Below are positions 2,405-50,742 of a stretch of DNA of 64,000 nucleotides, piece by piece. Where the stretch lies: the NCBI RefSeq assembly GCF_030013205.1, contig NZ_CP122648.1; one strand, written 5' to 3'. The position numbers and the translations under genes were made by a program. Source of the DNA: Escherichia coli. Lineage in GTDB: Bacteria > Pseudomonadota > Gammaproteobacteria > Enterobacterales > Enterobacteriaceae. Within the stretch, counting starts at the first letter, position 1; the number at the start of each line of letters is the position of its first letter. The notes beneath the pieces are model-generated. The model was not told where the DNA came from. It worked only from the letters and a program-made list of their open reading frames with translations, and did no database searches.

Positions 2405-3355
2405 TCAGCCTGCGATAGCACCAACAACCTGTAATACTTCGTCACGCGCTTGTTCTGGTTTTTCACTGTCAAGCCAGTGAACCCCTTCCCAACCACGCAG
2501 CCAGGTTATCTGCCGCTTCGCCAACTGTCTCGTGGCGCAAACACCTCGATAAACCATTTCATCGTATGAGATTTCGCCTTCAAGGTAAGACCACATCTGG
2601 CGATAACCCACGCAACGAATGGAAGGCAAGTCCGTATGCAAATCTCCTCGGGCAAAAAGCGCCCGGACTTCTGCTTCAAAACCTGAAGCCAACATCTGAT
2701 GAAAACGCTGCTCAATTCGTTGATGGAGCAGTTCACGGCTCGCCGGGGCGATGGCGAACTGATGCACCTGATACGGTAGAGCGTCTCCTGACGTTTGCGT
2801 CAGTTCCGTTAAAGTTTTACCCGAAATGAAAAAAACTTCCAGTGCCCGGGAAAGCCTTTGTGGATCATTTGGATGAATCCTTGCTGCCGCAACCGGATCG
2901 ATCTCCTGAAGTTGACGATGCAATGACTCCCAACCTTGCTCTGCCGCCTGTTGCTCAATTCTGGCCCGCACTTCCGGGTCTGCCGACGGTAGCGGCGACA
3001 ACCCTTCCAGCAATGCCTTGAAATACAACATCGTACCGCCCACTAACAGTGGGATCCGCCCCGCCGCGGTGATATCGGCCATTTCCGCCAGCGCATCGCG
3101 GCGAAAATCAGCAGCCGAGTAAGCCTGCGACGGATCGCGAATATCCAGCAATCGGTGCGGCGCGGCGAGTAACTCTTCAGCGTTCGGCTTCGCCGTCCCG
3201 ATATCCATCCCTTTGTAAATAAGGGCAGAATCAACGCTTATCAACTCTACTGGTAAAATTTTACGCAGCTCAATGGCTAACGCCGTTTTACCGGAGGCCG
3301 TCGGCCCCATCAAAAAAATCGCCTTAGGCAGGCTCGCCTTACTGATATCACTCAT
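2405..3355 (-). CDS. miaA: tRNA dimethylallyltransferase MiaA
   Basis: 316-aa ORF with P-loop GPTASGKT; overlaps 3' end of mutL by 8 nt as in the mutL-miaA-hfq operon. Confidence 0.95.
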
Positions 3356-5195
3356 CTTTCAGGGCTTTTATCGCCGGATGTAAATCAACAGATTGTAACA
3401 GACCACCCGGCGGCGTTTTCACAAGTTGCGGACATAACCGTTCCACGTCCGCTAGCAGGGTTATGGCCTGTGCCATTGACCACTGCGCATGTTCGCTCAT
3501 CAGATTTCGTGCAATCCACTGCGCAATATTGCCAGGTTCGAATACGGACTGCTTCGCCAGGTAGCCTATCAGTTCAGGAATCAAGATTTGTAAATTTTGT
3601 TGGCGTAAGGGTAAAGGCACGGCCCTGATGGTCACATGCTGTGCATCTGACTGGAAATCAATACCCAATTCCGCCAGGGCAGACTGCGCTTTTTCTAATG
3701 CCGATTTTTCTTCGCCAGAAACTTTTAGCCGCAACGGAATAAGCAACGGCTGGGCGCAAACTGGCGCTTCACCCGGCGTCAGTTGCGCCTGACGCAGCCA
3801 ACGTTCTGCCACTGGCAAGGCTAAAAGTGAAATGTTGCCGTCGCGCTCCAGCAACGCACAGTCGGAATGAACGATAGTCAGTACCCGACCAAAACTCTGA
3901 CTGTTCGCCGCAAGTGCAGGTTCCTGCGGTTCTGGCGCTTTTGGTTTTTGCATCGGCGCGGGCGTTTGCAAAAGCTGGCGATACACTTCACCTTGCTGTT
4001 TCTGGTAACCTGGCTGCGCATTCGGCCAGGGGGCAGCCGGACGACTGCCTGAGGCGGGCGCAGGAGTGTAACGCGGAGCTACTGGCTCACGAAATGCCGG
4101 TTCAGCAAAATGATTGCGCCCCGCCGCCACGCGGTTTTCCGGGATGGCGCGCGGTGCAGGTTGTGGTTCATCGTCCAGCGGTAGCGGCGTTTCCAGTTGC
4201 TGTTGTAGCACGCTCAGCACGCCCTGATAGATAAAATCATGCACCAGACGCGACTGATGGAAACGCACTTCGTGTTTGGCAGGGTGCACGTTGACGTCCA
4301 CCTGATGTGGGTCGATCTCCAGATACAGCACAAATGCCGGTTGCTGATCGGCCCCCAGTTTGTCTTCACAGGCCTGGCGGATCGCGTGATTGATCAGGCG
4401 ATCGCGCATCATGCGACCATTCACATAGCAATACTGAATTTCCGCCAGTGCGGGCGTGGTGTGATTCGGATCTGCCACCCAGCCGCGCAGCGTAAGATCG
4501 CCGTGTTGCCATTCAATCGCCAGCGCTTGTTCGAGAAAAGCGGTACCGCAAATCGCGCCTAAGCGCCGTTCTTTTTGCCCGCCTTCCGGCACTGCGCGGT
4601 ACTGACGCACAATTTTACCGTTATGCGACAGGTTGATCGTGACGTCGAAACGCGCCAGCGCAATGCGGCGGATGATCTCATCAATGTGGTTAAATTCGGT
4701 TTTCTCGGTGCGCAGGAATTTGCGCCGCGCCGGGGTGTTGTAGAACAGATCCAGCACCTCCAGCGTCGTTCCCACAGGATGCGCCGCCGGTTTTACCGTC
4801 ACGTCCATATCGCGCCCTTCGGCATAGGCCTGCCAGGCTTCCTGCTGTTCTGCGGTACGTGAAGTGAGCGTCAGGCGGGAAACCGAACTGATACTCGCCA
4901 GAGCCTCACCGCGAAAGCCCAGGCTGATAATGGCTTCGAGATCGTCCAGAGAGGCGATTTTACTGGTGGCATGACGAGCCAGCGCCAGCGCCAGCTCATC
5001 TTTTTTGATACCGCAGCCGTTATCACGAATGCGGATAAGTTTCGCCCCACCGCGTTCGATATCAATATCGATACGCGTCGCACCTGCATCGAGGCTGTTT
5101 TCCACCAGTTCTTTGACTACCGACGCAGGTCGCTCGACCACCTCACCTGCGGCAATCTGGTTCGCCAGTTGTGGCGGTAAGACCTGAATTGGCAT
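3348..5195 (-). CDS. mutL: DNA mismatch repair protein MutL
   Basis: 615 aa from second Met ([38 protein letters not shown]), GHKL ATPase motifs. Confidence 0.95.
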
Positions 5196-39120: not shown

Positions 39121-39196
39121 GCCCGGATAGCTCAGTCGGTAGAGCAGGGGATTGAAAATCCCCGTGTCCTTGGTTCGATTCCGAGTCCGGGCACCA
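39121..39196 (+). tRNA. pheU: tRNA-Phe (GAA)
   Basis: GCCCGGATAGCTCAGTCGGTAGAGCAGGGGATTGAAAATCCCCGTGTCCTTGGTTCGATTCCGAGTCCGGGCACCA, 76 nt with GAA anticodon and CCA end. Confidence 0.97.
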
Positions 39197-39393: not shown

Positions 39394-40656
39394 ATGGCAC
39401 TGACTGACGCAAAAATCCGGGCTGCAAAGCCCACTGACAAGGCTTATAAACTCACTGACGGGGCCGGCATGTTCCTGCTGGTTCATCCTAATGGTTCCCG
39501 TTACTGGCGTCTCCGCTATCGTATTCTGGGTAAGGAGAAGACTCTGGCACTTGGTGTGTATCCAGAAGTTTCTCTCTCCGAAGCTCGTACAAAACGGGAT
39601 GAGGCCCGAAAACTGATTTCAGAGGGGATTGACCCTTGCGAACAGAAAAGAGCTAAAAAAGTTGTCCCTGATTTACAGCTCTCTTTTGAACATATTGCAC
39701 GACGCTGGCATGCCAGTAATAAACAATGGGCACAATCACACAGCGATAAAGTACTCAAAAGCCTCGAGACACACGTTTTCCCCTTTATCGGCAACCGGGA
39801 TATCACAACACTCAGTACCCCGGACCTGCTTATCCCTGTTCGTGCTGCAGAAGCTAAACAAATTTATGAAATCGCCAGTCGTCTGCAGCAAAGAATATCT
39901 GCTGTAATGCGTTATGCCGTACAGTCTGGCATCATCAGATATAACCCGGCTCTGGATATGGCTGGTGCATTGACCACGGTAAAACGCCAGCATCGCCCTG
40001 CACTGGATCTTTCACGCCTGCCTGAACTTCTGTCGCGTATTGACGGTTATAAAGGCCAGCCTGTCACCCGACTGGCAGTTATGCTGAATTTACTGGTTTT
40101 TATTCGTTCCAGTGAACTCAGATACGCCCGCTGGTCTGAAATTGATATTGACAATGCCATGTGGACTATTCCAGCCGAACGCGAACCTCTGCCTGGCGTA
40201 AAATTCTCACACCGGGGCTCCAAGATGCGAACACCACATCTTGTGCCACTCAGCAAACAGGCTGTAGCCATACTGGCAGAACTACAGACATGGGCTGGTG
40301 AAAATGGTCTGATCTTTACGGGAGCACATGACCCGCATAAACCAATCAGTGAAAATACTGTAAATAAAGCCCTGAGGGTGATGGGGTATGACACAACCCA
40401 GGATGTCTGTGGCCATGGATTCCGTGCGATGGCATGTAGTGCGCTGATCGAATCAGGTTTGTGGTCCCGCGATGCTGTTGAACGTCAGATGAGCCATCAG
40501 GAACGTAACGGTGTACGCGCTGCGTATATCCATAAAGCCGAACATCTGGAAGAACGCCGGCTGATGCTACAGTGGTGGGCAGATTTTCTGAATGCGAACA
40601 GAGAGAAATGTATCAGTCCGTTTGATTATGCAAAGATCAACAATCCATTAAAATAG
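39394..40656 (+). CDS. P4-type tyrosine integrase
   Basis: 420-aa ORF MALTDAKIRAAKPTDKAYKLTDGAGMFLLVHPNGSRYWRLRYR with C-terminal catalytic region (HGFRAMA, Y in RAAYIH); 200 bp downstream of a tRNA gene; SD GAAGG. Confidence 0.92.
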   Translation: MALTDAKIRAAKPTDKAYKLTDGAGMFLLVHPNGSRYWRLRYRILGKEKTLALGVYPEVSLSEARTKRDEARKLISEGIDPCEQKRAKKVVPDLQLSFEHIARRWHASNKQWAQSHSDKVLKSLETHVFPFIGNRDITTLSTPDLLIPVRAAEAKQIYEIASRLQQRISAVMRYAVQSGIIRYNPALDMAGALTTVKRQHRPALDLSRLPELLSRIDGYKGQPVTRLAVMLNLLVFIRSSELRYARWSEIDIDNAMWTIPAEREPLPGVKFSHRGSKMRTPHLVPLSKQAVAILAELQTWAGENGLIFTGAHDPHKPISENTVNKALRVMGYDTTQDVCGHGFRAMACSALIESGLWSRDAVERQMSHQERNGVRAAYIHKAEHLEERRLMLQWWADFLNANREKCISPFDYAKINNPLK

Positions 40657-40819
40657 TAATAATCCCCGGGCAAAATGCCCGGGGTACTTTGAATGACTAT
40701 TTTTCTTTGGGCGTGATGAAGAAGATTGATGGTAAGACAAATTACTCCCGACTCTTACGTATTTTCATGGAAAGAAATCCCCCAATATCATCCATCGGGA
40801 TCGAGTAATAACCTGTAAT

Positions 40820-41005
40820 ATGCTGCAGGTTCCGACAGCGGCGGCAAATATGCAGCACATATTGTGCTCACTGATCGGCACCTGCCGTCTGAACAATGCG
40901 GAGTCAGAAAAATTGCTGCATTACGTCACAGATCATATGCAGGACTGGTCGGCAAACCGGGTACGCGATCTGTTGCCCTGGAAAGTTGATCTGACCTCTC
41001 AGTAA
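40820..41005 (+). pseudogene. IS66-family transposase C-terminal fragment
   Basis: 61-aa ORF LIGTCRLNNAESEKLLHYVTDHMQDWSANRVRDLLPW, paralogous to the C-terminus of the fragment at 41730-42251. Confidence 0.6.
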
Positions 41006-41069
41006 ATATCAATACGGTTCTGGCGAGCCGCTTACAATCGAACTGGGATACAGGGAGATAAAACAGACG

Positions 41070-41429
41070 ATGCAACTGAGCAGGCTGACGCTGAGAAGTA
41101 AAAAGCCGGAGCTTGTGGAGCAAGAGCTGTGGGGTGTCTTACTGGCTTATAATCTGGTGAGATATCAGATGATTAAAATGGCGGAACATCTGAAAGGTTA
41201 CTGGCCGAATCAACTGAGTTTCTCAGAATCATGCGGAATGGTGATGAGAATGCTGATGACATTGCAGGGCGCTTCACCGGGACATATACCGGAGCTGATG
41301 CGCGATCTTGCAAGTATGGGACAACTTGTGAAATTACCGACAATAAGGGAAAGGGCCTTCCCGAGAGTGGTAAAGGAGAGGCCCTGGAAATACCCCACAG
41401 CCCCGAAAAAGAGCCAGTCAGTTGCTTAA
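41070..41429 (+). pseudogene. transposase C-terminal fragment, IS4-like (family uncertain)
   Basis: 119-aa ORF with EQELWGVLLAYNLVRYQM motif recalled from IS4-family transposase C-termini. Confidence 0.45.
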
Positions 41430-41753
41430 CTGACTGGCATTAGGCCGCCGGGGGCGTTTTTTTACCACCGGGACTTCGGACATAACGGTGTTTTCAGTAA
41501 GTACGACAGGTACTGTGGAGGCACTCCCGTAAAGACGGGCATCAAGTTCCCGCTCCGACATACCTGCGGGCAGAGGCCATGAAAGGCCAGCTTTTCGGAA
41601 GCGCACGAACATACCACAAACTGTTGATTTTGGTACGCCCAGGCGACGTCCGGCCACAATCCGTGGTAAATGTTCTTCAAAGTGAAGACGTAAAGCTTCA
41701 GTGATCCAGGTCCGGTATTCCATACGATAGTGTCCATTAAAAATGATGGACAT
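41418..41753 (-). pseudogene. transposase N-terminal HTH fragment (family not assigned)
   Basis: 111-aa ORF with helix-turn-helix-like segment RRLGVPKSTVCGMFVRFRKAG; truncated. Confidence 0.35.
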
Positions 41754-42251
41754 TATTTTTGTGGAGCCGGAGGAAACACACCAGACTGTTTAAATGAGCC
41801 GGTTACCGAAATACGCGGGTTGCCGGTGTCTGAACGCCTGGCGGTCAGGCAAATGCAGAGTAAACCGCTACTGACTTCCCTGTATAAGCTGATGCAGGAG
41901 AAAGAACACACATTATCGAAAAAATGCCGTCTGAGAGATGCGTTCCGGTATATCCGGAAGCACTGGGTTGCGTTGTGCAACTTCTGTGATGATGGTCTGG
42001 CGGAGGCGGATAATAATGCCGCGGAAAGAGCGCTTCGTGCAGTCTGTCTCGGAAAGAAAAACTTTATGTTCTTCGGCAGCGATCACGGCGGCGAGCGAGG
42101 AGCACTGTTGTACGGGCTGATCGGCACCTGCCGACTGAACGGTATCGATCCGGAAGCGTATCTGCGCCATATCCTGAGCGTACTGCCGGAATGGCCTTCC
42201 AACCGAGTTGACGAACTCCTGCCATGGAACGTAGTACTCACCAATAAATAA
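41730..42251 (+). pseudogene. IS66-family transposase (TnpC) C-terminal fragment
   Basis: 173-aa ORF ending NNAAERALRAVCLGKKNFMFFGSDHGGERGALLYGLIGTCRLNGIDPEAYLRHILSVLPEWPSNRVDELLPWN, the conserved IS66 TnpC C-terminal signature; lacks the N-terminal catalytic part. Confidence 0.7.
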
Positions 42252-42385
42252 GCGTCAATACGGCACTCCGTTAACGCTTACGTTTAAGTCATAAAGCCAT
42301 GCAGAACGCTCACCTCCCAAGATCTTGGTTTTTATAAGGTGTAATGATAATGTAAGCTAATGTTTCACATGCCAAAGGAAACACC

Positions 42386-43714
42386 ATGAGCCACAGGGAA
42401 TTGTTCAGCGAATTTCTTGAAAATTTGAATCTTGACCTCAAACAGGCAAAAAAGATCAGCTATCACTATCGAAAAATAACCAAGTCATTAAATCTTGCGT
42501 TCAGAGGAACGAGTTCCCGGGTAGCAAACCGCTTGAAAGTGGGGTCAGTAGGCAGACATACCGCAATAAAAGGCATATCCGATCTGGATATGCTTTATAT
42601 TATGCCCCCCAATCAGTATGAATATTATAACCGTAAGGATAATGGTCAGTCTGCATTGCTTACAGATGTCAGAAACATTCTGGCGGAAGAATATCCTGAC
42701 CAGACTGTGAAAAAGGACAGACTGGTTGTTCAGATCATCTTTAAAAACTTTTATGTCGAGGTTCAACCTGTATTCAGACAGGATGATGACAGCTTTAAAT
42801 TCCCTGAAAGCTATAATGGAGGAGCATGGCGCATTACAAAACCTCTTCACGAAAAGGCGGCCATGACCGCATTTTCGCGAGATAAATCCAATAATCTGCG
42901 CAAGCTGTGTAAAATGATCAGAGCCTGGAAGAACCTGCATGGCGTCAATATGGGTGGCTTACTGATAGACACACTAGCGTATCGCTTTCTTTCATCAACA
43001 TCAGATTATGACAATACCGGAAATGGCAGCCTGGGAGCCCTCGCCAGAGACTTTTTTGAATATCTGTCAAATGAGGAGAGAAAGGAAAGGTATCTCGCGT
43101 TAGGCAGTAATCAGCATGTACGTGTTAAATCTCCCTGGTTTGGCCGGGCAGCGAAACACGCGTATGAATTATGTTGTGATGCCTTAGACGCTGAGGGGGC
43201 TGCCAGTGAAAATGACCGCTGGCGCAAAGTGTTCGGACGAGCCTTCCCCAGACGTAAAGTGGGTATTATGGAAGCCCGTCTTGGTCTGGAATCGCATGCG
43301 GCAGATGCTGTTCCCTGGACCGATACCGAAGAGTTTATAGAGGATAAATATCCGGTGGATATCAGGTACTCACTCAACCTTGACTGTACCGTAACCCAGG
43401 ATGGTTTCCCTCCCAGAAGCCTGAGGGAGATGCTTACCAGAAGATTCCGCCTCTCCGCTCGAAAATCTCTCCTTTTCCGGGCAGACTTGACAGAAATGGA
43501 GGCAGAGGAACCCTACACCGTTATGTGGAAGGTACTGAACGTGGGTGACGAAGCACGCAGAAGAAATATGATCCGGGGACAAATCGTTTCGGACGGCGGC
43601 TACTGTACGAAGAAAGAAACTACCGACTTCCGCGGAGATCACATGGTAGAATGCTATGTGATAAAAAATGAGGTTGTGGTTGCCCGGGCCCAGATTGAAG
43701 TTCCCATAAGCTGA
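42386..43714 (+). CDS. polymerase-beta-superfamily nucleotidyltransferase, SMODS/CD-NTase-like (candidate signalling nucleotide or oligonucleotide synthase)
   Basis: 442-aa ORF with SD AAAGGAA; NTase signature G-S-x10-D-L-D (GSVGRHTAIKGISDLD) near the N-terminus; stop overlaps the SD of the next gene. Confidence 0.6.
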   Translation: MSHRELFSEFLENLNLDLKQAKKISYHYRKITKSLNLAFRGTSSRVANRLKVGSVGRHTAIKGISDLDMLYIMPPNQYEYYNRKDNGQSALLTDVRNILAEEYPDQTVKKDRLVVQIIFKNFYVEVQPVFRQDDDSFKFPESYNGGAWRITKPLHEKAAMTAFSRDKSNNLRKLCKMIRAWKNLHGVNMGGLLIDTLAYRFLSSTSDYDNTGNGSLGALARDFFEYLSNEERKERYLALGSNQHVRVKSPWFGRAAKHAYELCCDALDAEGAASENDRWRKVFGRAFPRRKVGIMEARLGLESHAADAVPWTDTEEFIEDKYPVDIRYSLNLDCTVTQDGFPPRSLREMLTRRFRLSARKSLLFRADLTEMEAEEPYTVMWKVLNVGDEARRRNMIRGQIVSDGGYCTKKETTDFRGDHMVECYVIKNEVVVARAQIEVPIS

Positions 43715-43721
43715 GGTTTTT

Positions 43722-44297
43722 ATGACGCAATCAGAGATGCTGAAATTAATCGCCCGACATGGTTATAACGTTGGATTTGGCGCTAAGAAAAACTTTGCCA
43801 CCTATGATCTGATTTGTAAGGCATCCGGTTGGATTAGCTTTATTTCTCTTGCTGTCGGTGTGTTCGCCCTTTTTATTCCTGAGCTGGCCACAAACGTCAT
43901 TTCCGCGATATTAATTATATTTGGTGTTGCTACAATGTACATTCAGTTTTATGACTCGGAAAAGCAGAGTTATGAAAGTGCGGGGATTGAGCAGACCAAA
44001 ATTTTTAATGAACTTGAAGTCATCTACCGCAACGTAAAAAGCGATGCAAACTTTGACTATCAGCGTACACAACAATCCATCGACGCTATCATGTCCCGGT
44101 TTTACGGCACGGTCATCAGCAAACAGATCTTCGGAAGTAACTGGTACGCACATTATAAATTTTACTGTGAATTTGAAAAAGCATGGGTTGAAGAAGAGCT
44201 GAACCTGACACTGAAGGACAAAATCCCGCTTTCGCTCTGCTTTCTCGCCGGTCTGGCGATCATTTTTACTATAGCTGTCATCTGGAAAACGCCCTGA
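43722..44297 (+). CDS. 2-TM membrane protein, SLATT-like candidate effector
   Basis: 191-aa ORF starting 8 nt after the NTase stop; two adjacent hydrophobic helices (ISFISLAVGVFALFIPELATNVISAILIIFGVATMYI) plus a C-terminal hydrophobic segment. Confidence 0.6.
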   Translation: MTQSEMLKLIARHGYNVGFGAKKNFATYDLICKASGWISFISLAVGVFALFIPELATNVISAILIIFGVATMYIQFYDSEKQSYESAGIEQTKIFNELEVIYRNVKSDANFDYQRTQQSIDAIMSRFYGTVISKQIFGSNWYAHYKFYCEFEKAWVEEELNLTLKDKIPLSLCFLAGLAIIFTIAVIWKTP

Positions 44298-44848
44298 TGC
44301 TGCAGCCAATGAAAAATTCAGCAAGCTGACTGTCAAATATGCGATGTATAGCCGGTATCACCATCCAGTGTACGTTCTATAAGGGGGGCGCTTGGAAAAC
44401 GGGTAGAGTCAAGATGTGGCGCGGTAATTTTACAGGTCAGGCATATCTGTTGCCGCCTCTTTCGATTGGCGGTGCCTTACTGTCCTGACCATAAATCCTG
44501 TTTCCACACCCCGCTCATCGAAGCGGACATGCGCTTCTAACACATCCGGCTCTCGGACAGAATCATGCCTTCGCCCACGGAAACCTCTGCGGGAGCTTCG
44601 GTGCATATTTTCATGGAAGGGGATCACCCAATAACTTCCATCGAGATCGGGTCATAACGGCCAATCCGTGATCGAATAGAGCGGAATACGCACTCTGACG
44701 AACTGCTTACATTTAAACTAATTACAAACTATATAAATCCGCCTTGCTCATTCACAGGGTAGATATATTCTTACTTTTAATTTTATGTGTAATTAACTGA
44801 TGACGAAAAATGAATTGAACTGTAAATGCATATCTAAGTTTTTCATTC

Positions 44849-45574
44849 TTATGATGTACATAATACCTTAAAATTATCAACTAGCTGAGCATTAACCTCC
44901 ATCTGACTAATCCCCCATAATGCGGCTAACTGTTTCTCTGCAATCCCACTATCCCATGGCATTAGTGGGTCATTACGAAACTTAGCAAATGGCCCATCTG
45001 TTTCTGTAAGAATGCGTGATTTGGGTATTTTCAAAACTAAGGCCTTACCCTTTATTGTATCGAGCATAGCAGGCCCCACTGAGAACCAGCATCCTAAATC
45101 AATTGCCCTTTCAAGCTGCTTAGGTGTTCCAGTGAACCAATGCAATATTGCCACCCCATCGATATTTTCAATCTCATCAAGCACCGCTGATGCACTTCCC
45201 CGACTATGGATAGTCATAATCTTGCCACCAGCCCGATTTACACTGTTGAGAATGTGTCGGAACACTTTCAATTGAATATCCCAATGTTCTTTAAATCCCT
45301 GTCCACCATCAAGCCCTATTTCCCCTACATACTTAGTTTCCGAAAGCAATGAATCAAACAGGTCTAACTCATGCGATCTTTGATGCGCGATTTGAGGATG
45401 TAGCCCAAGAGCAGTTCGGATTCGTTGACTTTCTTTAGCCAATAAAGAAGTACCATGCCATGCTTTAGGTGTTGTTGTCACCGACAGAATATAAGTCCCT
45501 CGACGTTTACTTTCTTCAGCCACGAGGTCTGGCCGAGGATATAAGTCTAGATGACAGTGCATATCGATGCTCAT
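44849..45574 (-). CDS. qatD: QatD-like TatD-family metal-dependent hydrolase
   Basis: 241-aa ORF beginning MSIDMHCHLDLYP (TatD HxH motif); ATGA overlap with upstream qatC. Confidence 0.8.
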   Translation of the reverse strand: MSIDMHCHLDLYPRPDLVAEESKRRGTYILSVTTTPKAWHGTSLLAKESQRIRTALGLHPQIAHQRSHELDLFDSLLSETKYVGEIGLDGGQGFKEHWDIQLKVFRHILNSVNRAGGKIMTIHSRGSASAVLDEIENIDGVAILHWFTGTPKQLERAIDLGCWFSVGPAMLDTIKGKALVLKIPKSRILTETDGPFAKFRNDPLMPWDSGIAEKQLAALWGISQMEVNAQLVDNFKVLCTS

Positions 45575-46890
45575 ACTATGTTCTCACTCAGTAAATAGCT
45601 TTCAACCTCATCCAGGCCATCCTTAAATACTTGCTTGAAATTATCAAATTCTGCCGTAGGCAAAGGGCCACTTTTGGCAATCCATGTACCTATTTTCAAA
45701 GTCGATTTCTGCGTGATCGCAATCCTAAGGGCGATCAGGTCGTCCCTGCGATCTATTTCATTCATTACTTTAGCTAAGGACTGGAAAATATATTCAACAT
45801 CTCTACTAATTCCCCCTGCATGAAGTGATGCTCGTCGAATGATACACGGTATACATACCCCACATTGCTGCCCCATTCGTTTCCAATGACTGCAGGATAC
45901 TGTACTTTCCACAATTTTAGATAAGAGCTGCTTATTTGAACATTCGGAGATCATTTTTCCTTTTGTCTTAAACTGATATGGATTGATTATTTGACAAGAA
46001 ATACCGAGCGCATCAAAGATCTTTTGTATGCTCGTAATAAAATGTGGATGTGTTGTTCGTGTGCTCAGCGAACCTATCCGCCGTGGAGTAAGTGGTGCAT
46101 TTAATGAGATAAATCCATTTTCAGGTACGAACAAATCAATCTTTTCTTGTTGAGATATCTCTTGTACGGCACAAGCACCTACGGCCGCAAAGGCAAGAAA
46201 ATTGAGGCTACGAGTTCGCATCGTAATATCAGTCACGCCTTGATAAATGTGTGGGTCAGCATTAATCTCAAAGCGCGAAAATTGGCCACTTAATTTTTCA
46301 GCAATCTGATCTTGACGAGACTTATCCCCCTTATAAGCATGACTAACCAAAAGTGGAGCGCGCCCTGCAGCCAGAAGATCTATTGCACCAATAGCTGAAT
46401 CCAGACCTCCTGAAAATAGGCTGACACAGTCAAGCCCTTTTAGCTTAATCAGACGATGCCTTGAATGCTGGCTATAAGGCTCTGGCGGTGCATAACCATC
46501 GTCACAAAATTCGAAATCCCAGATGTCTCCACTAAGAAAATGCAAAGCACTCTCAAGTTCTTTCTTTAGACTAATCCATCTGGATGGTTCATGAAGGGGG
46601 AGTCGTAACGACAATTGGCGGGTCCAACCATCCTCGGAACTTTCACGCTGAACGAAAGTATCTGCTGCAGTTACTGCTAATGCAACACTCAGAAAATCCA
46701 TGACCTTAGCTGGAAGCTGTACTCCCAAACGTCTGATCCGATCAATCGCAGGATTCCCGATAACAGATATATCTCCGCGCCTCTGACCACTTAATCCATA
46801 TAGCTGAACAGGTAACACTTTCTCACTTGCTGGCGGCAAATGGTGATGTTTATGATGGAAAACTAATTGTGTCACTGGTATGCCTCCCAT
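45571..46890 (-). CDS. qatC: QatC-like QueC-family PP-loop ATPase
   Basis: 439-aa ORF with PP-loop SGGLDS (DCVSLFSGGLDSAIGAIDLL); overlaps qatB by 19 nt. Confidence 0.8.
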   Translation of the reverse strand: MGGIPVTQLVFHHKHHHLPPASEKVLPVQLYGLSGQRRGDISVIGNPAIDRIRRLGVQLPAKVMDFLSVALAVTAADTFVQRESSEDGWTRQLSLRLPLHEPSRWISLKKELESALHFLSGDIWDFEFCDDGYAPPEPYSQHSRHRLIKLKGLDCVSLFSGGLDSAIGAIDLLAAGRAPLLVSHAYKGDKSRQDQIAEKLSGQFSRFEINADPHIYQGVTDITMRTRSLNFLAFAAVGACAVQEISQQEKIDLFVPENGFISLNAPLTPRRIGSLSTRTTHPHFITSIQKIFDALGISCQIINPYQFKTKGKMISECSNKQLLSKIVESTVSCSHWKRMGQQCGVCIPCIIRRASLHAGGISRDVEYIFQSLAKVMNEIDRRDDLIALRIAITQKSTLKIGTWIAKSGPLPTAEFDNFKQVFKDGLDEVESYLLSENIV

Positions 46891-47624
46891 TCTTGCCAGG
46901 CCTCAATAATGGCCTGACGTTCAATTTTTACCATTTGGTTTCGTGTGAACGATCTTATGTTACCGGCAAGTTTTGGTGCCATATGTTTATCAACAACAAC
47001 TTTAATCAATTCCCGGAGTTCAATTTCTGCATGAATTGCCTTTGAAGGTGTATCTGCTTTGTTCCATGCCCTATTAGAATCCATTACCATCTGAAGGAAA
47101 ATACTTTCCGCTAGATAACCAATCATTGTGTCAACAATCACACCATCAGTTATTTTTTGAGGATCGAAAATTTCTACGCCATCAAGAGCCTCCACTAAAG
47201 CATGGTTCATGGCCGCACAGATCTTTTCTGAGTCACCATCCTGTGATGTTAAAGCTTGAGCAATAGTTGATATTGCTATTTCGCATGGAAGGCCTGCCAA
47301 ACTGCCCAAATCGATGCTTGGTTCTCCGGGAGCCGAAGGCATTCCCACTAAAGCCCCAAATAATTCGGCCCCAGCTTGCGTGACACTCCCTAATCGCCGA
47401 GCAGCGTTACTGCTCCCTCCGGAGGCTTTTCGCGCGTAGTGCCCTATGGCTTTTCTGAAATCTGCTCGATTTCCATTTGATACCGCATTTCCCAACGATT
47501 CTCGAAATGGCGCAAACCTCCTTTCTTGCGGCGAGGGTAACGGTTGCTGTGGCTGATCATCAGCCCATGGTGGAACCAGCGGAGAGCCACCTCCTGGACC
47601 TTTACTTGATTGTGATGTTCCCAT
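46872..47624 (-). CDS. qatB: QatB-like protein (no recognisable domain)
   Basis: 250-aa ORF whose ATG overlaps the qatA stop (TAATG); position between KAP NTPase and QueC-like genes. Confidence 0.7.
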   Translation of the reverse strand: MGTSQSSKGPGGGSPLVPPWADDQPQQPLPSPQERRFAPFRESLGNAVSNGNRADFRKAIGHYARKASGGSSNAARRLGSVTQAGAELFGALVGMPSAPGEPSIDLGSLAGLPCEIAISTIAQALTSQDGDSEKICAAMNHALVEALDGVEIFDPQKITDGVIVDTMIGYLAESIFLQMVMDSNRAWNKADTPSKAIHAEIELRELIKVVVDKHMAPKLAGNIRSFTRNQMVKIERQAIIEAWQEWEAYQ

Positions 47625-49408
47625 TAAGCGTCCTTATTCCATTGTTCATCTTTTAATGCTGCAGTCATCCACGCTGGTCGTTTCATCCCCAACTGTAATT
47701 CCTGTAGATAACGAATTAATATGCTGGCTGCATCTGTTGAGTAGCGGGCCAACAGACATGCGCCGGAAAAGCCTCTGGGCTTACGATCCCAATCTGATAC
47801 CTGCCGTAACTGGTTAATTAAACCTTCCATTACAGGTATTTGCTCCTCACGAGGAAGTGCTTTCAAAAGGTTTTCTGCTGTAGGAGAACTAGTGTTTTTC
47901 AATTCAATTAGTGCATTTAGTACTTCCCGTCCAGATGGCGATAAACCAACCACATATGCACCTATTGGCATAGTTTCTCGGGACAGATATATGGCGGCCC
48001 TTAAGTCAATCCCACCAAGACGAGGTTCAAGTTGGGCCCATTGACTGATGAAAGATTTAGTCGTTGGACTATCAGTCCATGTCTTTGGTGCATCAGTAGG
48101 TATTTGACCGCCATTATCGTCAAGCTGTTTAAGTATCTGGGGAACACCTTGTTCAATATCCACGAGATGATATAAATCAGCGGTGCCATCCACTCCAACA
48201 CAGCGTTCAAAAATTACTAGCTTAGTAATAATTGCTTCATCCAAAGGCATTGCTCGTCGCTTCGCAATTTGAGATCGCATTTTCACAACATTCAACAAGC
48301 GTTTAACGATCCTGGGATTACCATGAATAATTGGAGAGTTGGCTAAAATGGGAGCAATACGGTCAGCACGCGCAAACGCCAGCGCGAGGTTGCTATCATC
48401 CGCTTCACCAGTCATTTTTAAGGCCTCCTGACGTGAGATTGGTTCATCTTTCCAGGATTGCTGTAACGCCTTCTCTAAGCCCTCACGGAGCATAGTTATT
48501 TTTTCGCCTTCTAAGCCATGTTCAATGGCATAAAGCATGAACAGATACGAACGGATCTCACGGACCCCAGCCTTAGGCACCCGAATAGGAACCTGGATTA
48601 GCTTATCCAGATAATCTATTTGATGGCGCTGTGATGCCCCTTTGAAGTAATCAGCCACAGAAGAGCGAATCATGTCCTCATCTGCTGCAATAATAAAGGC
48701 TGTATTAGTCAAGAAAAGGAATAGCCTGATAGCTTCAAGTGTATGGATAGCATTGGCAGGGAGACAGCGGTCTAGGTTATCTATTACCACAATGAGTGGC
48801 TTTCCAAGTTCTTCTAGAATTTCCCCATATTCCTTACGAAAGGCATCAATCTGCTGAGGGGGGCTTTTTTTTGTTTGTGGTTTAATCAAACCACAAGCAG
48901 TTTCTTTACCTTCTTTAGCTATATTGCCTAAAGCCTCATACTCTTCCTGACTCTGGATGCCATCGGTGATATTTCTTAATGCACCAATCCCCCTAGAAAG
49001 CAAACCGCCAGTAGGTAATCCTGCCATTAAAGCTGTACCCTCAGCTAGTAATCCCATAGCTCTAAAACCATCAACTCGACTAAGGAGTCTCTTAGTTTTT
49101 GATATAAGGGTAGAATTACCTTCAGCAGCTTTTGTCAATTCTGTAGCGATGACTTCAAGAAGTGCGGCACGGGCGTCGTCGTACCCCTGATAGAGCCAAG
49201 AGTCAAAATTGATAACAATCCAATCTTTGTCGTCTTGCTCAAGTTTTTGCTCTATCAGTTTTAACAGAGAGGATTTACCTGCCCCCCAGTTTCCAAAAAT
49301 TCCGATAGATACTGGTAACATATCTTTCGTGGTAAGTACATCCACGGCTAACTGAGATACTTCACCAAAATTTAGGTAGTCTTCTGATGACTCTTTGTCT
49401 GACCACAT
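47624..49408 (-). CDS. qatA: QatA-like KAP-family P-loop NTPase
   Basis: 594-aa ORF with Walker A GNWGAGKSS near the N-terminus and Walker B-like VVIDNLDRC; SD AAGGA upstream of ATG at 49408. Confidence 0.8.
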   Translation of the reverse strand: MWSDKESSEDYLNFGEVSQLAVDVLTTKDMLPVSIGIFGNWGAGKSSLLKLIEQKLEQDDKDWIVINFDSWLYQGYDDARAALLEVIATELTKAAEGNSTLISKTKRLLSRVDGFRAMGLLAEGTALMAGLPTGGLLSRGIGALRNITDGIQSQEEYEALGNIAKEGKETACGLIKPQTKKSPPQQIDAFRKEYGEILEELGKPLIVVIDNLDRCLPANAIHTLEAIRLFLFLTNTAFIIAADEDMIRSSVADYFKGASQRHQIDYLDKLIQVPIRVPKAGVREIRSYLFMLYAIEHGLEGEKITMLREGLEKALQQSWKDEPISRQEALKMTGEADDSNLALAFARADRIAPILANSPIIHGNPRIVKRLLNVVKMRSQIAKRRAMPLDEAIITKLVIFERCVGVDGTADLYHLVDIEQGVPQILKQLDDNGGQIPTDAPKTWTDSPTTKSFISQWAQLEPRLGGIDLRAAIYLSRETMPIGAYVVGLSPSGREVLNALIELKNTSSPTAENLLKALPREEQIPVMEGLINQLRQVSDWDRKPRGFSGACLLARYSTDAASILIRYLQELQLGMKRPAWMTAALKDEQWNKDA

Positions 49409-49539
49409 TTTTATATCCTTTACATCACCAATTTTTACGTCATTGAGTAAACTACAGGTTTGATAAAACCAACTCTGTTCAGGTGGGCAAATTCAGTGTA
49501 CCACTTCATCAATAATCCAATATGATGACTGCTATAGAT

Positions 49540-50742
49540 CTATTTTTTAAAGAATGAAATAAGCTTTCTTATCCCAGTCCATATTTTCCTATCAGAATCC
49601 GAAGGGTTAAATTCGCTCTTGTCAAAATCAGCAACCTCAGCAACCTCAGCAACCTCAGCAACCTCAGCAACCTCAGCAACCTCAGCAACCTCAGCAACCT
49701 CAGCAACCTCAGCAACCTCAGCAACCTCAGCAACCTCAGCAACCTCAGCAACCTCAGCAAGGTTTATTCTATTTTGATGAGCTGTCAAATGTTCTTTGTT
49801 AATTTCATCTCTAATTAGCTGTTCTTTTTCTATGCTGTAGTTTTTGTCATTATAAGTCACATCAAAATCATCTAAGAAAACGATATAAATCAATTTAAAA
49901 AAACTAGTCTTAAATAAAAAACTATCGCACTCATCAGGAAAACCAAAAAAGAAAACATTAAGATATTTGGTTGCTTTGCGCTTGTCTTTTAGTCCATTAT
50001 AATACTTATTTGCTTCTGCTCTTTGTTTTTCATACTCACTACAGAAAAAACTCTTTTTACTTTCATCCCATTCTGAAGCATCAATTTCAAGTTTATATGC
50101 TTGTTTGGTACCTTTCTTTCTGGCTAAAAAAGTAAGGTAATATCTATTCGAATTTATCTCCAGCCGTATATTAGATTGAATTTTACCAAAATAAATTGCT
50201 GGCTTATTATATCTAATTCCTTCTTTATAGATGATTAGTTGAAAAGTATCTTTATAAGTTCTAACTCCATAAGGGGGAATTGATAATGGTTCATAGAGAT
50301 TATCTCCATTAATGTAGTAGTCTACTACCGGTTTGATGCTTGAAGATGACACAGGGTGTACTTTACCTCCCAAATCTTTTTCATCATCTCGCGTCTGTTT
50401 GATAATTCTTCTGCCAGAAGAGTCGTAATTTCTTTCAGACACATCAAGTTTCAGAAGAGATATAGCTAATGCCGGTGGTGAATTATGCTTTTTATTATTC
50501 TTTGAGTTACACTTATTTTTACTCTTAGGATCATGAATCTTACATCCCGGCCTATGAGTCTCTTTATATCGAAAGTATGATTGATTTAAATTTATTTCTT
50601 TGAAGCTACATGGAGTAGCGGGTATCCTACATTTGTCATACGGGCATTCAAAAGTGGTTGTTCGTATATAAAGATCATCCATTTCCCGAAGATCATGACC
50701 ATGAACAATTTCACCACTAACAGAATCTCTTGCTATTGTCAC
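49540..50742 (-). CDS. uncharacterised cysteine-rich protein with C-terminal (AEV)n repeat
   Basis: 400-aa ORF from GTG at 50742 preceded by a perfect SD (AAGGAG, 5-nt spacer); N-terminal CPYDKC...C...C cysteine cluster; AT-rich; ends 131 bp upstream of qatA on the same strand. Confidence 0.7.
   Translation of the reverse strand: MTIARDSVSGEIVHGHDLREMDDLYIRTTTFECPYDKCRIPATPCSFKEINLNQSYFRYKETHRPGCKIHDPKSKNKCNSKNNKKHNSPPALAISLLKLDVSERNYDSSGRRIIKQTRDDEKDLGGKVHPVSSSSIKPVVDYYINGDNLYEPLSIPPYGVRTYKDTFQLIIYKEGIRYNKPAIYFGKIQSNIRLEINSNRYYLTFLARKKGTKQAYKLEIDASEWDESKKSFFCSEYEKQRAEANKYYNGLKDKRKATKYLNVFFFGFPDECDSFLFKTSFFKLIYIVFLDDFDVTYNDKNYSIEKEQLIRDEINKEHLTAHQNRINLAEVAEVAEVAEVAEVAEVAEVAEVAEVAEVAEVAEVAEVAEVADFDKSEFNPSDSDRKIWTGIRKLISFFKK
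49629..49760. repeat. perfect 9-bp tandem repeat, about 14.7 copies (unit AGCAACCTC on + strand)
   Basis: Uninterrupted identical units read directly; in-frame within the 400-aa ORF, encoding Ala-Glu-Val repeats. Confidence 0.97.

Follow-up and report, generated by a model that had tools for sequence, protein, structure and literature searches.

Positions 42386-44297 of the window analysed here, a 64,000-nt stretch of Escherichia coli contig NZ_CP122648.1 (assembly GCF_030013205.1), hold a two-gene operon that is, with a probability of about 0.85, a Type I anti-phage system of cyclic oligonucleotide-based signalling (CBASS), in which a nucleotidyltransferase of the cGAS/DncV-like kind (a CD-NTase) signals through a nucleotide to a SLATT6 membrane effector. 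The architecture of the pair and the family memberships of its two products are established in this analysis. The cyclase gene cdn (42386..43714, + strand) encodes 442 amino acids (aa) from an ATG start, and the SLATT_6 effector gene (43722..44297, + strand) encodes 191 aa, also from an ATG. An initial annotation of the window had placed both co-oriented open reading frames (ORFs) correctly and had proposed a minimal CBASS-like or Hailong-like defence module. The PADLOC, Pfam and fold results bear out the CBASS half of that proposal, and the Hailong half is not supported, with no HalA or HalB chain among the PDB matches.

The hidden Markov model (HMM) search that the annotation had recommended finds SMODS and AGS_C on the enzyme and SLATT_6 on the membrane protein in Pfam, and the CBASS Cyclase and 2TM Effector profiles in PADLOC, with PADLOC E-values of 9e-177 for the cyclase and 2e-82 for the effector. 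The effector gene directly follows a SMODS and AGS_C gene at every locus sampled, namely in Brevundimonas, Acinetobacter, an E. coli IncFII plasmid, and a deltaproteobacterial metagenome-assembled genome, where the pair adjoins a type I restriction gene. Together with the present island, the pairing is kept in five of five genomic contexts, whose flanking genes are unrelated. No Cap2/Cap3 (E1/E2/JAB) or HORMA/TRIP13 genes lie near this pair or at the sampled homologous loci, so that the operon, with a cyclase and an adjacent effector only, is Type I in the Millman classification.

Compared with the IncFII plasmid allele, both genes have a proportion of nonsynonymous differences (pN) of 0.09 and of synonymous differences (pS) of 0.66-0.78, the latter being saturated at 0.78 in the effector. 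The ratio of nonsynonymous to synonymous rates is 0.04 in the nucleotidyltransferase (NTase) core and 0.07 in AGS-C, and 0.58 in the 22-residue linker, which has few sites. Both genes are thus under strong purifying selection. This selection and the HMM E-values indicate that the pattern of the locus is not due to chance. The locus carries, in intact form, an ordinary two-gene anti-phage system that is already known and brings no new biology, since HMM libraries match both proteins over their full length, E. coli operons of the same architecture restrict phages, and the DNA occurs in hundreds of genomes. It is of value as a well-conserved chromosomal example of the least understood branch of CBASS.

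The cyclase and its AGS-C domain

The assignment of cdn to CD-NTases fused to AGS-C draws on PADLOC, Pfam, AlphaFold2 (AF2) and Foldseek. The PADLOC-DB CBASS 'Cyclase' profile PDLC00796 matches the enzyme with 586.7 bits over residues 1-442 (profile positions 1-430 of 432). The NTase core (aa 1-290, 42386..43255, + strand) comprises the SMODS domain and a helical lobe; it is defined by the Pfam SMODS match on residues 1-161 (E 1.3e-39) and by the profile match to Pseudomonas aeruginosa CdnD (PaCdnD). The core is followed by a flexible interdomain linker (aa 291-312, 43256..43321, +) and by an AGS-C domain (aa 313-442, 43322..43711, +), which is predicted to be beta-rich from the strands of the AF2 model. 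Pfam AGS_C (PF18134) covers residues 313-442 with an E-value of 7.2e-45 (model positions 2-129 of 129) and accounts for the C-terminal extension that had been left unassigned. The suggestion of an unclassified variant, raised from that extension and the 442-aa length, is not supported. The term AGS-C was applied in a 2020 review to the helical lobe of DncV (PMC7288161) and not to a beta-rich domain as here.

The enzyme carries the pol-beta NTase signature GSVGRHTAIKGISDLD, in which G53 and S54 are followed by eleven residues and by D66, L67 and D68. The signature reported by the initial annotation is therefore present, with the spacing GS-x11-DxD instead of GS-x10-DxD. In the alignment with PaCdnD, its catalytic residues D62 and D64 stand opposite D66 and D68. 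In the family alignment, built from 54 full-length homologues that are 28-48% identical, S54, D66 and D68 are invariant and the third acidic residue, E125, is nearly invariant. The enzyme has the GS / [DE]x[DE] / [DE] active site of a CD-NTase in intact form. The AGS-C domain has seven residues that are invariant in the same alignment (F364, K382, N385, A390, R397, G398, and H419), and their density suggests a conserved binding surface. The linker differs widely among the homologues in both length and sequence. A 19-residue Kyte-Doolittle scan finds no hydrophobic segment in the enzyme.

The AF2 model of the enzyme has a mean predicted local distance difference test score (pLDDT) of 93.2 and a predicted template modelling score of 0.91, and shows an NTase core and a beta-rich C-terminal domain. 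The linker at 291-312 is its only low-confidence region, with a disordered stretch at 300-307 where the pLDDT falls below 50. The comparison with cGAS/DncV-like folds that had been called for gives a uniform result, in that the top 50 PDB structures ranked by Foldseek are all CD-NTases or cGAS. The best of them is PaCdnD (E 5.8e-16, template modelling score 0.74-0.78 normalised to the target), which is also the nearest solved structure by sequence search (E 4e-8). The profile of the 54 homologues matches PaCdnD at positions 2-288 with an E-value of 1.5e-28, and also recovers Enterobacter cloacae CdnD02, EcCdnC, OAS, cGAS, and entry 9SA4, which is probably the Bacillus cereus CdnD (BcCdnD).

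The same matches bear on the idea that the NTase is a resistance enzyme of the ANT/Lnu type or a housekeeping enzyme, with an unrelated membrane protein beside it. The weak Pfam NTP_transf_2 match (E 0.032) is the sole feature in its favour. The strong matches are without exception CBASS cyclases and CD-NTase structures, no ANT/Lnu family appears in NCBIfam at E < 0.01 or leads the Pfam matches, and the enzyme keeps SLATT_6 as its partner in different phyla. The PADLOC, Pfam, profile and Foldseek results refute this idea, which had been named in the initial annotation among the outcomes that would overturn it, and its probability is negligible.

The effector and the proposed signalling

The effector gene is identified by PADLOC, Pfam, NCBIfam, hydropathy and AF2. 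The PADLOC CBASS 'Effector, 2TM' profile PDLC00695 matches residues 1-189 with 273.6 bits (profile positions 1-191 of 195), Pfam SLATT_6 (PF18169) matches with an E-value of 5.6e-63 (model positions 1-173 of 176), and NCBIfam SLATT_6 (NF033630) scores 223.8 bits, its cut-off being 100. The 854 homologues are all annotated as SLATT_6. Hydrophobic segments lie at about residues 36-56, 59-77, and 169-189, with a maximal 19-residue Kyte-Doolittle mean of 2.53, in agreement with the two adjacent transmembrane (TM) helices and the C-terminal hydrophobic segment first read from the sequence. The protein thus has both a two-TM hairpin and a SLATT_6 match that spans the full length and exceeds the curated threshold. 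The predicted order is TM1 (36-56), TM2 (59-77), a cytoplasmic helical domain (79-168), and TM3 (169-189).

The N-terminus is rich in Lys and Arg, which suggests an N-in topology and would place the helical domain of about 90 residues (79-168), along with the conserved parts, in the cytoplasm. The strongest conservation is found in GYNVGFGAKKxFATYD before TM1 and in SKQIxxSNWYAHYKF after the helical domain. Both motifs contain many Lys and aromatic residues and would suit a putative nucleotide-binding site. The AF2 model is all helical with a pLDDT of 90.

The defence phenotype of the present pair is assigned by analogy with published operons of the same architecture. Richmond-Buccola et al. 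cloned 17 Type I CBASS operons, including EcCdnF04-SLATT6 and EcCdnF05-SLATT6 (bioRxiv 10.1101/2023.05.21.541620; Cell Host Microbe 2024). Operons of this type act against many dsDNA phages. EcCdnF04-SLATT6, described as coming from E. coli BIDMC103, restricts phages of five families at least 10,000-fold, and AGS-C-bearing operons give broader defence against T1-like phages; the CD-NTase-AGS-C fusion is found in about 40% of Type I operons (bioRxiv 10.1101/2023.05.21.541620). Mutants in the prohead-protease scaffold, selected on another AGS-C operon, are at least 10-fold resistant to the F04 and F05 operons, and the escape mutations of the CBASS screen map to virion-assembly proteins and not to nucleases or sponges (bioRxiv 10.1101/2023.05.21.541620). 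No in vitro product was seen for any clade F enzyme in the same study.

In the proposed mechanism, the cyclase would be idle as long as no late-infection cue is sensed, AGS-C probably contributing to the sensing, and the cue may be related to the prohead protease or to capsid assembly. The activated enzyme would then make a nucleotide second messenger, which would bind the Lys-rich and aromatic-rich cytoplasmic face of SLATT6. The effector would oligomerise or open in the inner membrane, and the collapse of membrane integrity or potential would stop phage production through abortive infection or growth arrest. That the trigger comes late in infection, which kind of signal is made, and that SLATT6 acts by disrupting the membrane are inferred.

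A clade-F-type pair of this architecture could also work without a canonical activating cyclic oligonucleotide, which is considered rather unlikely. In one version, the linker (aa 291-312, including I294-M295-E296) or AGS-C may act as a tripwire that senses the prohead protease or capsid assembly, with the release of AGS-C activating the enzyme. In the other, the product may be a non-cyclic or inhibitory nucleotide that gates the SLATT6 channel by a guard logic. Either version would explain the lack of an in vitro product from clade F. In a 2026 preprint whose scope does not extend to clade F, phage prohead proteases are shown to switch on CD-NTases of clades A, D, and G by cleaving a central surface loop (PMC12991175). 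The AF2 model has no large central or long disordered loop within the NTase core. A central protease-cleaved activation loop of the clade A, D and G kind is accordingly rejected for this enzyme, and the cleaved loops of those clades have no obvious counterpart here.

The main rival to CBASS is a guard-type inhibitory logic similar to that of Hailong or Panoptes. SLATT6 would be kept shut by a nucleotide or oligonucleotide that the NTase makes constitutively, and a phage nuclease or nucleotide sponge would take this signal away and set the toxic membrane protein free. Hailong (review PMC13276650) and Panoptes (PMC12657218) are established cases of membrane effectors held in check by nucleotides, clade F has no known cyclic product in vitro, and SLATT proteins are also found as partners of reverse transcriptases that synthesise DNA, a setting in which the DNA product has been suggested to neutralise them (DRT10, PMC12632851). 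On the other side, the sequence, profile and fold matches of the enzyme are all CD-NTases, cGAS or OAS. The enzyme appears in the model to end in the structured AGS-C beta-domain (...VPIS) and not in a flexible tail with a priming tyrosine, and the virion-assembly escape mutations are not those of a trigger by nucleases or sponges. A guard-type system is therefore judged improbable.

Several points weigh against the Type I CBASS assignment. The two NCBIfam CBASS-cyclase equivalogs score 100 bits on the enzyme, below their cut-off of 200 bits, as expected if it belongs to a different clade. The placement in clade F comes from architecture and species, since CdnF04 and CdnF05 are the only E. coli operons with AGS-C and SLATT6 named in the published panel; by this analogy, the allele would be CdnF04, CdnF05, or a close sibling. 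The fold search gives no informative structural relative for the effector model, and profile and sequence searches of the effector against the PDB give nothing meaningful, so that pore or channel formation by the effector is a prediction. The last two points concern expression in the native strain. The promoter scan finds no consensus sigma-70 promoter on the + strand in the 134 bp upstream of the operon, and insertion sequence (IS) remnants abut the operon on that side.

These last points would fit a pair that has kept its reading frames but is not expressed in this strain, carried as a passenger of the island after IS4 and IS66 insertions removed its promoter, and so would the four transposase pseudogene fragments between the integrase and the operon. 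Against this, both frames are intact and under strong purifying selection, and DNA of at least 99% identity occurs in 254 complete-genome records, including that of CFT073 with its different upstream context. The consensus scan is compatible with a weak or non-sigma-70 promoter, and a TTGGTT-15 nt-GATAAT arrangement can be read at 42325-42351, upstream of the operon. Silence of the pair is very improbable. The promoter and terminator scan as a whole is at background level. Its only + strand terminator-like site (44245-44259) falls within the coding sequence of the effector and is likely to be due to chance.

Operon, distribution and island

The two genes of the CBASS operon are separated by 7 nt. 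The effector ATG begins 8 nt past the last base of the cdn stop, which is the sense in which the figure of 8 nt in the initial annotation applies. The overlap of the cyclase stop with the ribosome-binding site of the second gene is as that annotation had read it: the effector GAGG (43713..43716, + strand) lies six bases before the effector ATG and overlaps the TGA at 43712-43714. A stop codon inside the binding site points to co-transcription and possibly coupled translation of the two genes. An AAGGA is found seven bases ahead of the cdn ATG.

The 2.1-kb pair occurs in 271 of 5,426 RefSeq complete E. coli genomes (about 5%). Its products are named WP_000019626.1 'nucleotide-binding domain-containing protein' and WP_000194394.1 'SLATT domain-containing protein', the accessions being taken from a locus with 100% identical DNA, and each exact protein is present on at least 1,000 contigs. 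A full-text literature search for WP_000019626 and WP_000194394 returned no mention. The phage genome collection contains three distant partial matches to the enzyme only, which indicates that its gene is not typically phage-borne; PHROGs holds families for both proteins. In strain STEC384 (NZ_CP091029.1), an IS2 element splits the CBASS pair, which is probably inactivated there.

A second E. coli allele is located at 2665-4654 of the IncFII plasmid contig NOHK01000060.1. Its enzyme is 83% identical to the present one, and its effector is 26 residues longer at the C-terminus. The genes around it include toxin-antitoxin genes (ParE-family and others), and it adjoins an IS110 transposase.

The description of the surroundings as an integrase-borne island is supported by a tRNA-Phe gene (39121..39196, + strand; ARAGORN; Rfam tRNA 68.3 bits), which is the integration site, and by a tyrosine integrase (39394..40656, +; ORF and RefSeq annotation of an identical locus). 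The start of the island at tRNA-Phe adjoins cutA-dsbD-dicD. In strain MFDS1001074, the same island is found at the other tRNA-Phe gene, beside yqgA. The QatDCBA anti-phage operon (44849..49408, - strand) is convergent with the CBASS pair and was confirmed by PADLOC, with scores of 322 bits for QatD, 467 for QatC, 429 for QatB, and 1129 for QatA. Its distance from the pair, first put at 550 bp, is 551 bp to the qatD stop (44849).

CBASS and Qat form one contiguous block in 239 complete E. coli genomes, compared with 257 that have the pair at 80% coverage or more. The block (window positions 42300-49450) is found together at pheU, at pheV, and in the IS-rich context of CFT073, where it is kept behind different IS elements. 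This near-constant contiguity and joint movement mark CBASS-Qat as a fixed two-system block and not a chance neighbourhood. The near-obligate linkage makes the island suitable for asking whether CBASS and Qat cooperate.

The region upstream of the operon contains IS4 and IS66 transposase remnants (40820..42251; RefSeq pseudogene annotations of identical loci). These comprise four truncated fragments, two of which have in common a repeat of 33 nt (40862-40894 and 42108-42140) coding for the same C-terminal transposase motif, LIGTCRLN. The fragments may have displaced the original promoter of the operon. A 53-nt direct repeat, 83% identical between its copies (40760-40812 and 44606-44658), brackets the 3.85 kb of IS remnants and CBASS genes and may be the trace of a module insertion or recombination into the island. 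A 35-bp stretch at about 44659-44695, between CBASS and Qat, recurs at 100% on E. coli plasmids and chromosomes that are unrelated, in one case under an IS110-family transposase annotation. The stretch may be a mobile-element end or a target sequence.

Directly downstream of qatA is an ORF of 400 aa (49540-50742, - strand) with a perfect 9-bp tandem repeat of 14.8 copies (49628-49760) that encodes (AEV)n. The product length varies with the strain, with values of 508 aa (ETEC4090), 445 aa (MFDS1001074), and 430 aa (CFT073). The ORF has no match in Pfam, NCBIfam or PADLOC, and it accompanies the CBASS-Qat block in three other loci inspected. The ORF may be an accessory or defence gene, with a repeat of variable length, that has so far escaped recognition.

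Comparison with known systems

Hailong: The Hailong system (HalA/HalB) has the same layout of an NTase gene and a membrane-effector gene in a defence island. Tan et al., in Nature in 2025, are said to describe HalB as an oligo-dA synthase with protein priming, in which the priming tyrosine reportedly sits on a flexible tail and the constitutive oligo-dA is an inhibitory signal, and HalA reportedly comprises an ion-channel domain and a DNA-binding crown domain. Hailong thus differs in its constitutive inhibitory signal, and the enzyme here is from the cyclase family. No HalB chain is among the PDB matches of the enzyme (profile E <= 10, Foldseek top 50), the presence of HalB in that copy of the PDB being unconfirmed, and no HalA chain was returned for the effector in the PDB sequence, profile and fold searches. 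In these searches, the two proteins show no detectable relationship to a HalB-type NTase or a HalA-type effector. In a review of these systems, DNA made by HalB holds the HalA ion channel closed (PMC13276650).

Solved CD-NTases: The structures of PaCdnD (6P82/6P8U), B. cereus CdnD, E. cloacae CdnD02, and E. coli CdnC have the same cGAS/DncV-like bilobed fold as the present enzyme, and share with it the catalytic GS, DxD and acidic triad. Their sequence identity to it is about 20%, and they have no AGS-C domain. Several of them work with HORMA/TRIP13 or Cap2/Cap3 regulators, whereas this locus has none.

Cap15 and Cap14: The Cap15 (S-2TM-beta) and Cap14 (2TM-SAVED) effectors are likewise small inner-membrane proteins encoded directly after the cyclase. 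They presumably share with SLATT6 a logic in which a cytoplasmic ligand-sensing part is coupled to a TM hairpin. Unlike them, SLATT6 is all helical, has a third, C-terminal TM helix, and lacks a beta-barrel or SAVED sensor.

DRT9 and DRT10: The SLATT proteins of these systems belong to the same effector superfamily, and pore formation in the membrane is predicted for them (PMC12632851, PMC12483538). The DRT9 protein is of another subfamily (PF18160/SLATT_5), which matches the present effector weakly (E 7.9e-4). Their partner is a reverse transcriptase with a non-coding RNA and not a CD-NTase; an Rfam search over 39-51 kb detects tRNA only, with no sign of a non-coding RNA of the DRT9/DRT10 type.

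EcCdnF04-SLATT6 and EcCdnF05-SLATT6: These operons are from the same species and have the same two-gene layout, with an AGS-C-fused CD-NTase and a SLATT6 effector. Compared by architecture and species, they have no demonstrable difference from the present locus. The two E. coli allele groups, chromosomal here and on the IncFII plasmid, with enzymes that are 83% identical, may fit the two named subclusters.

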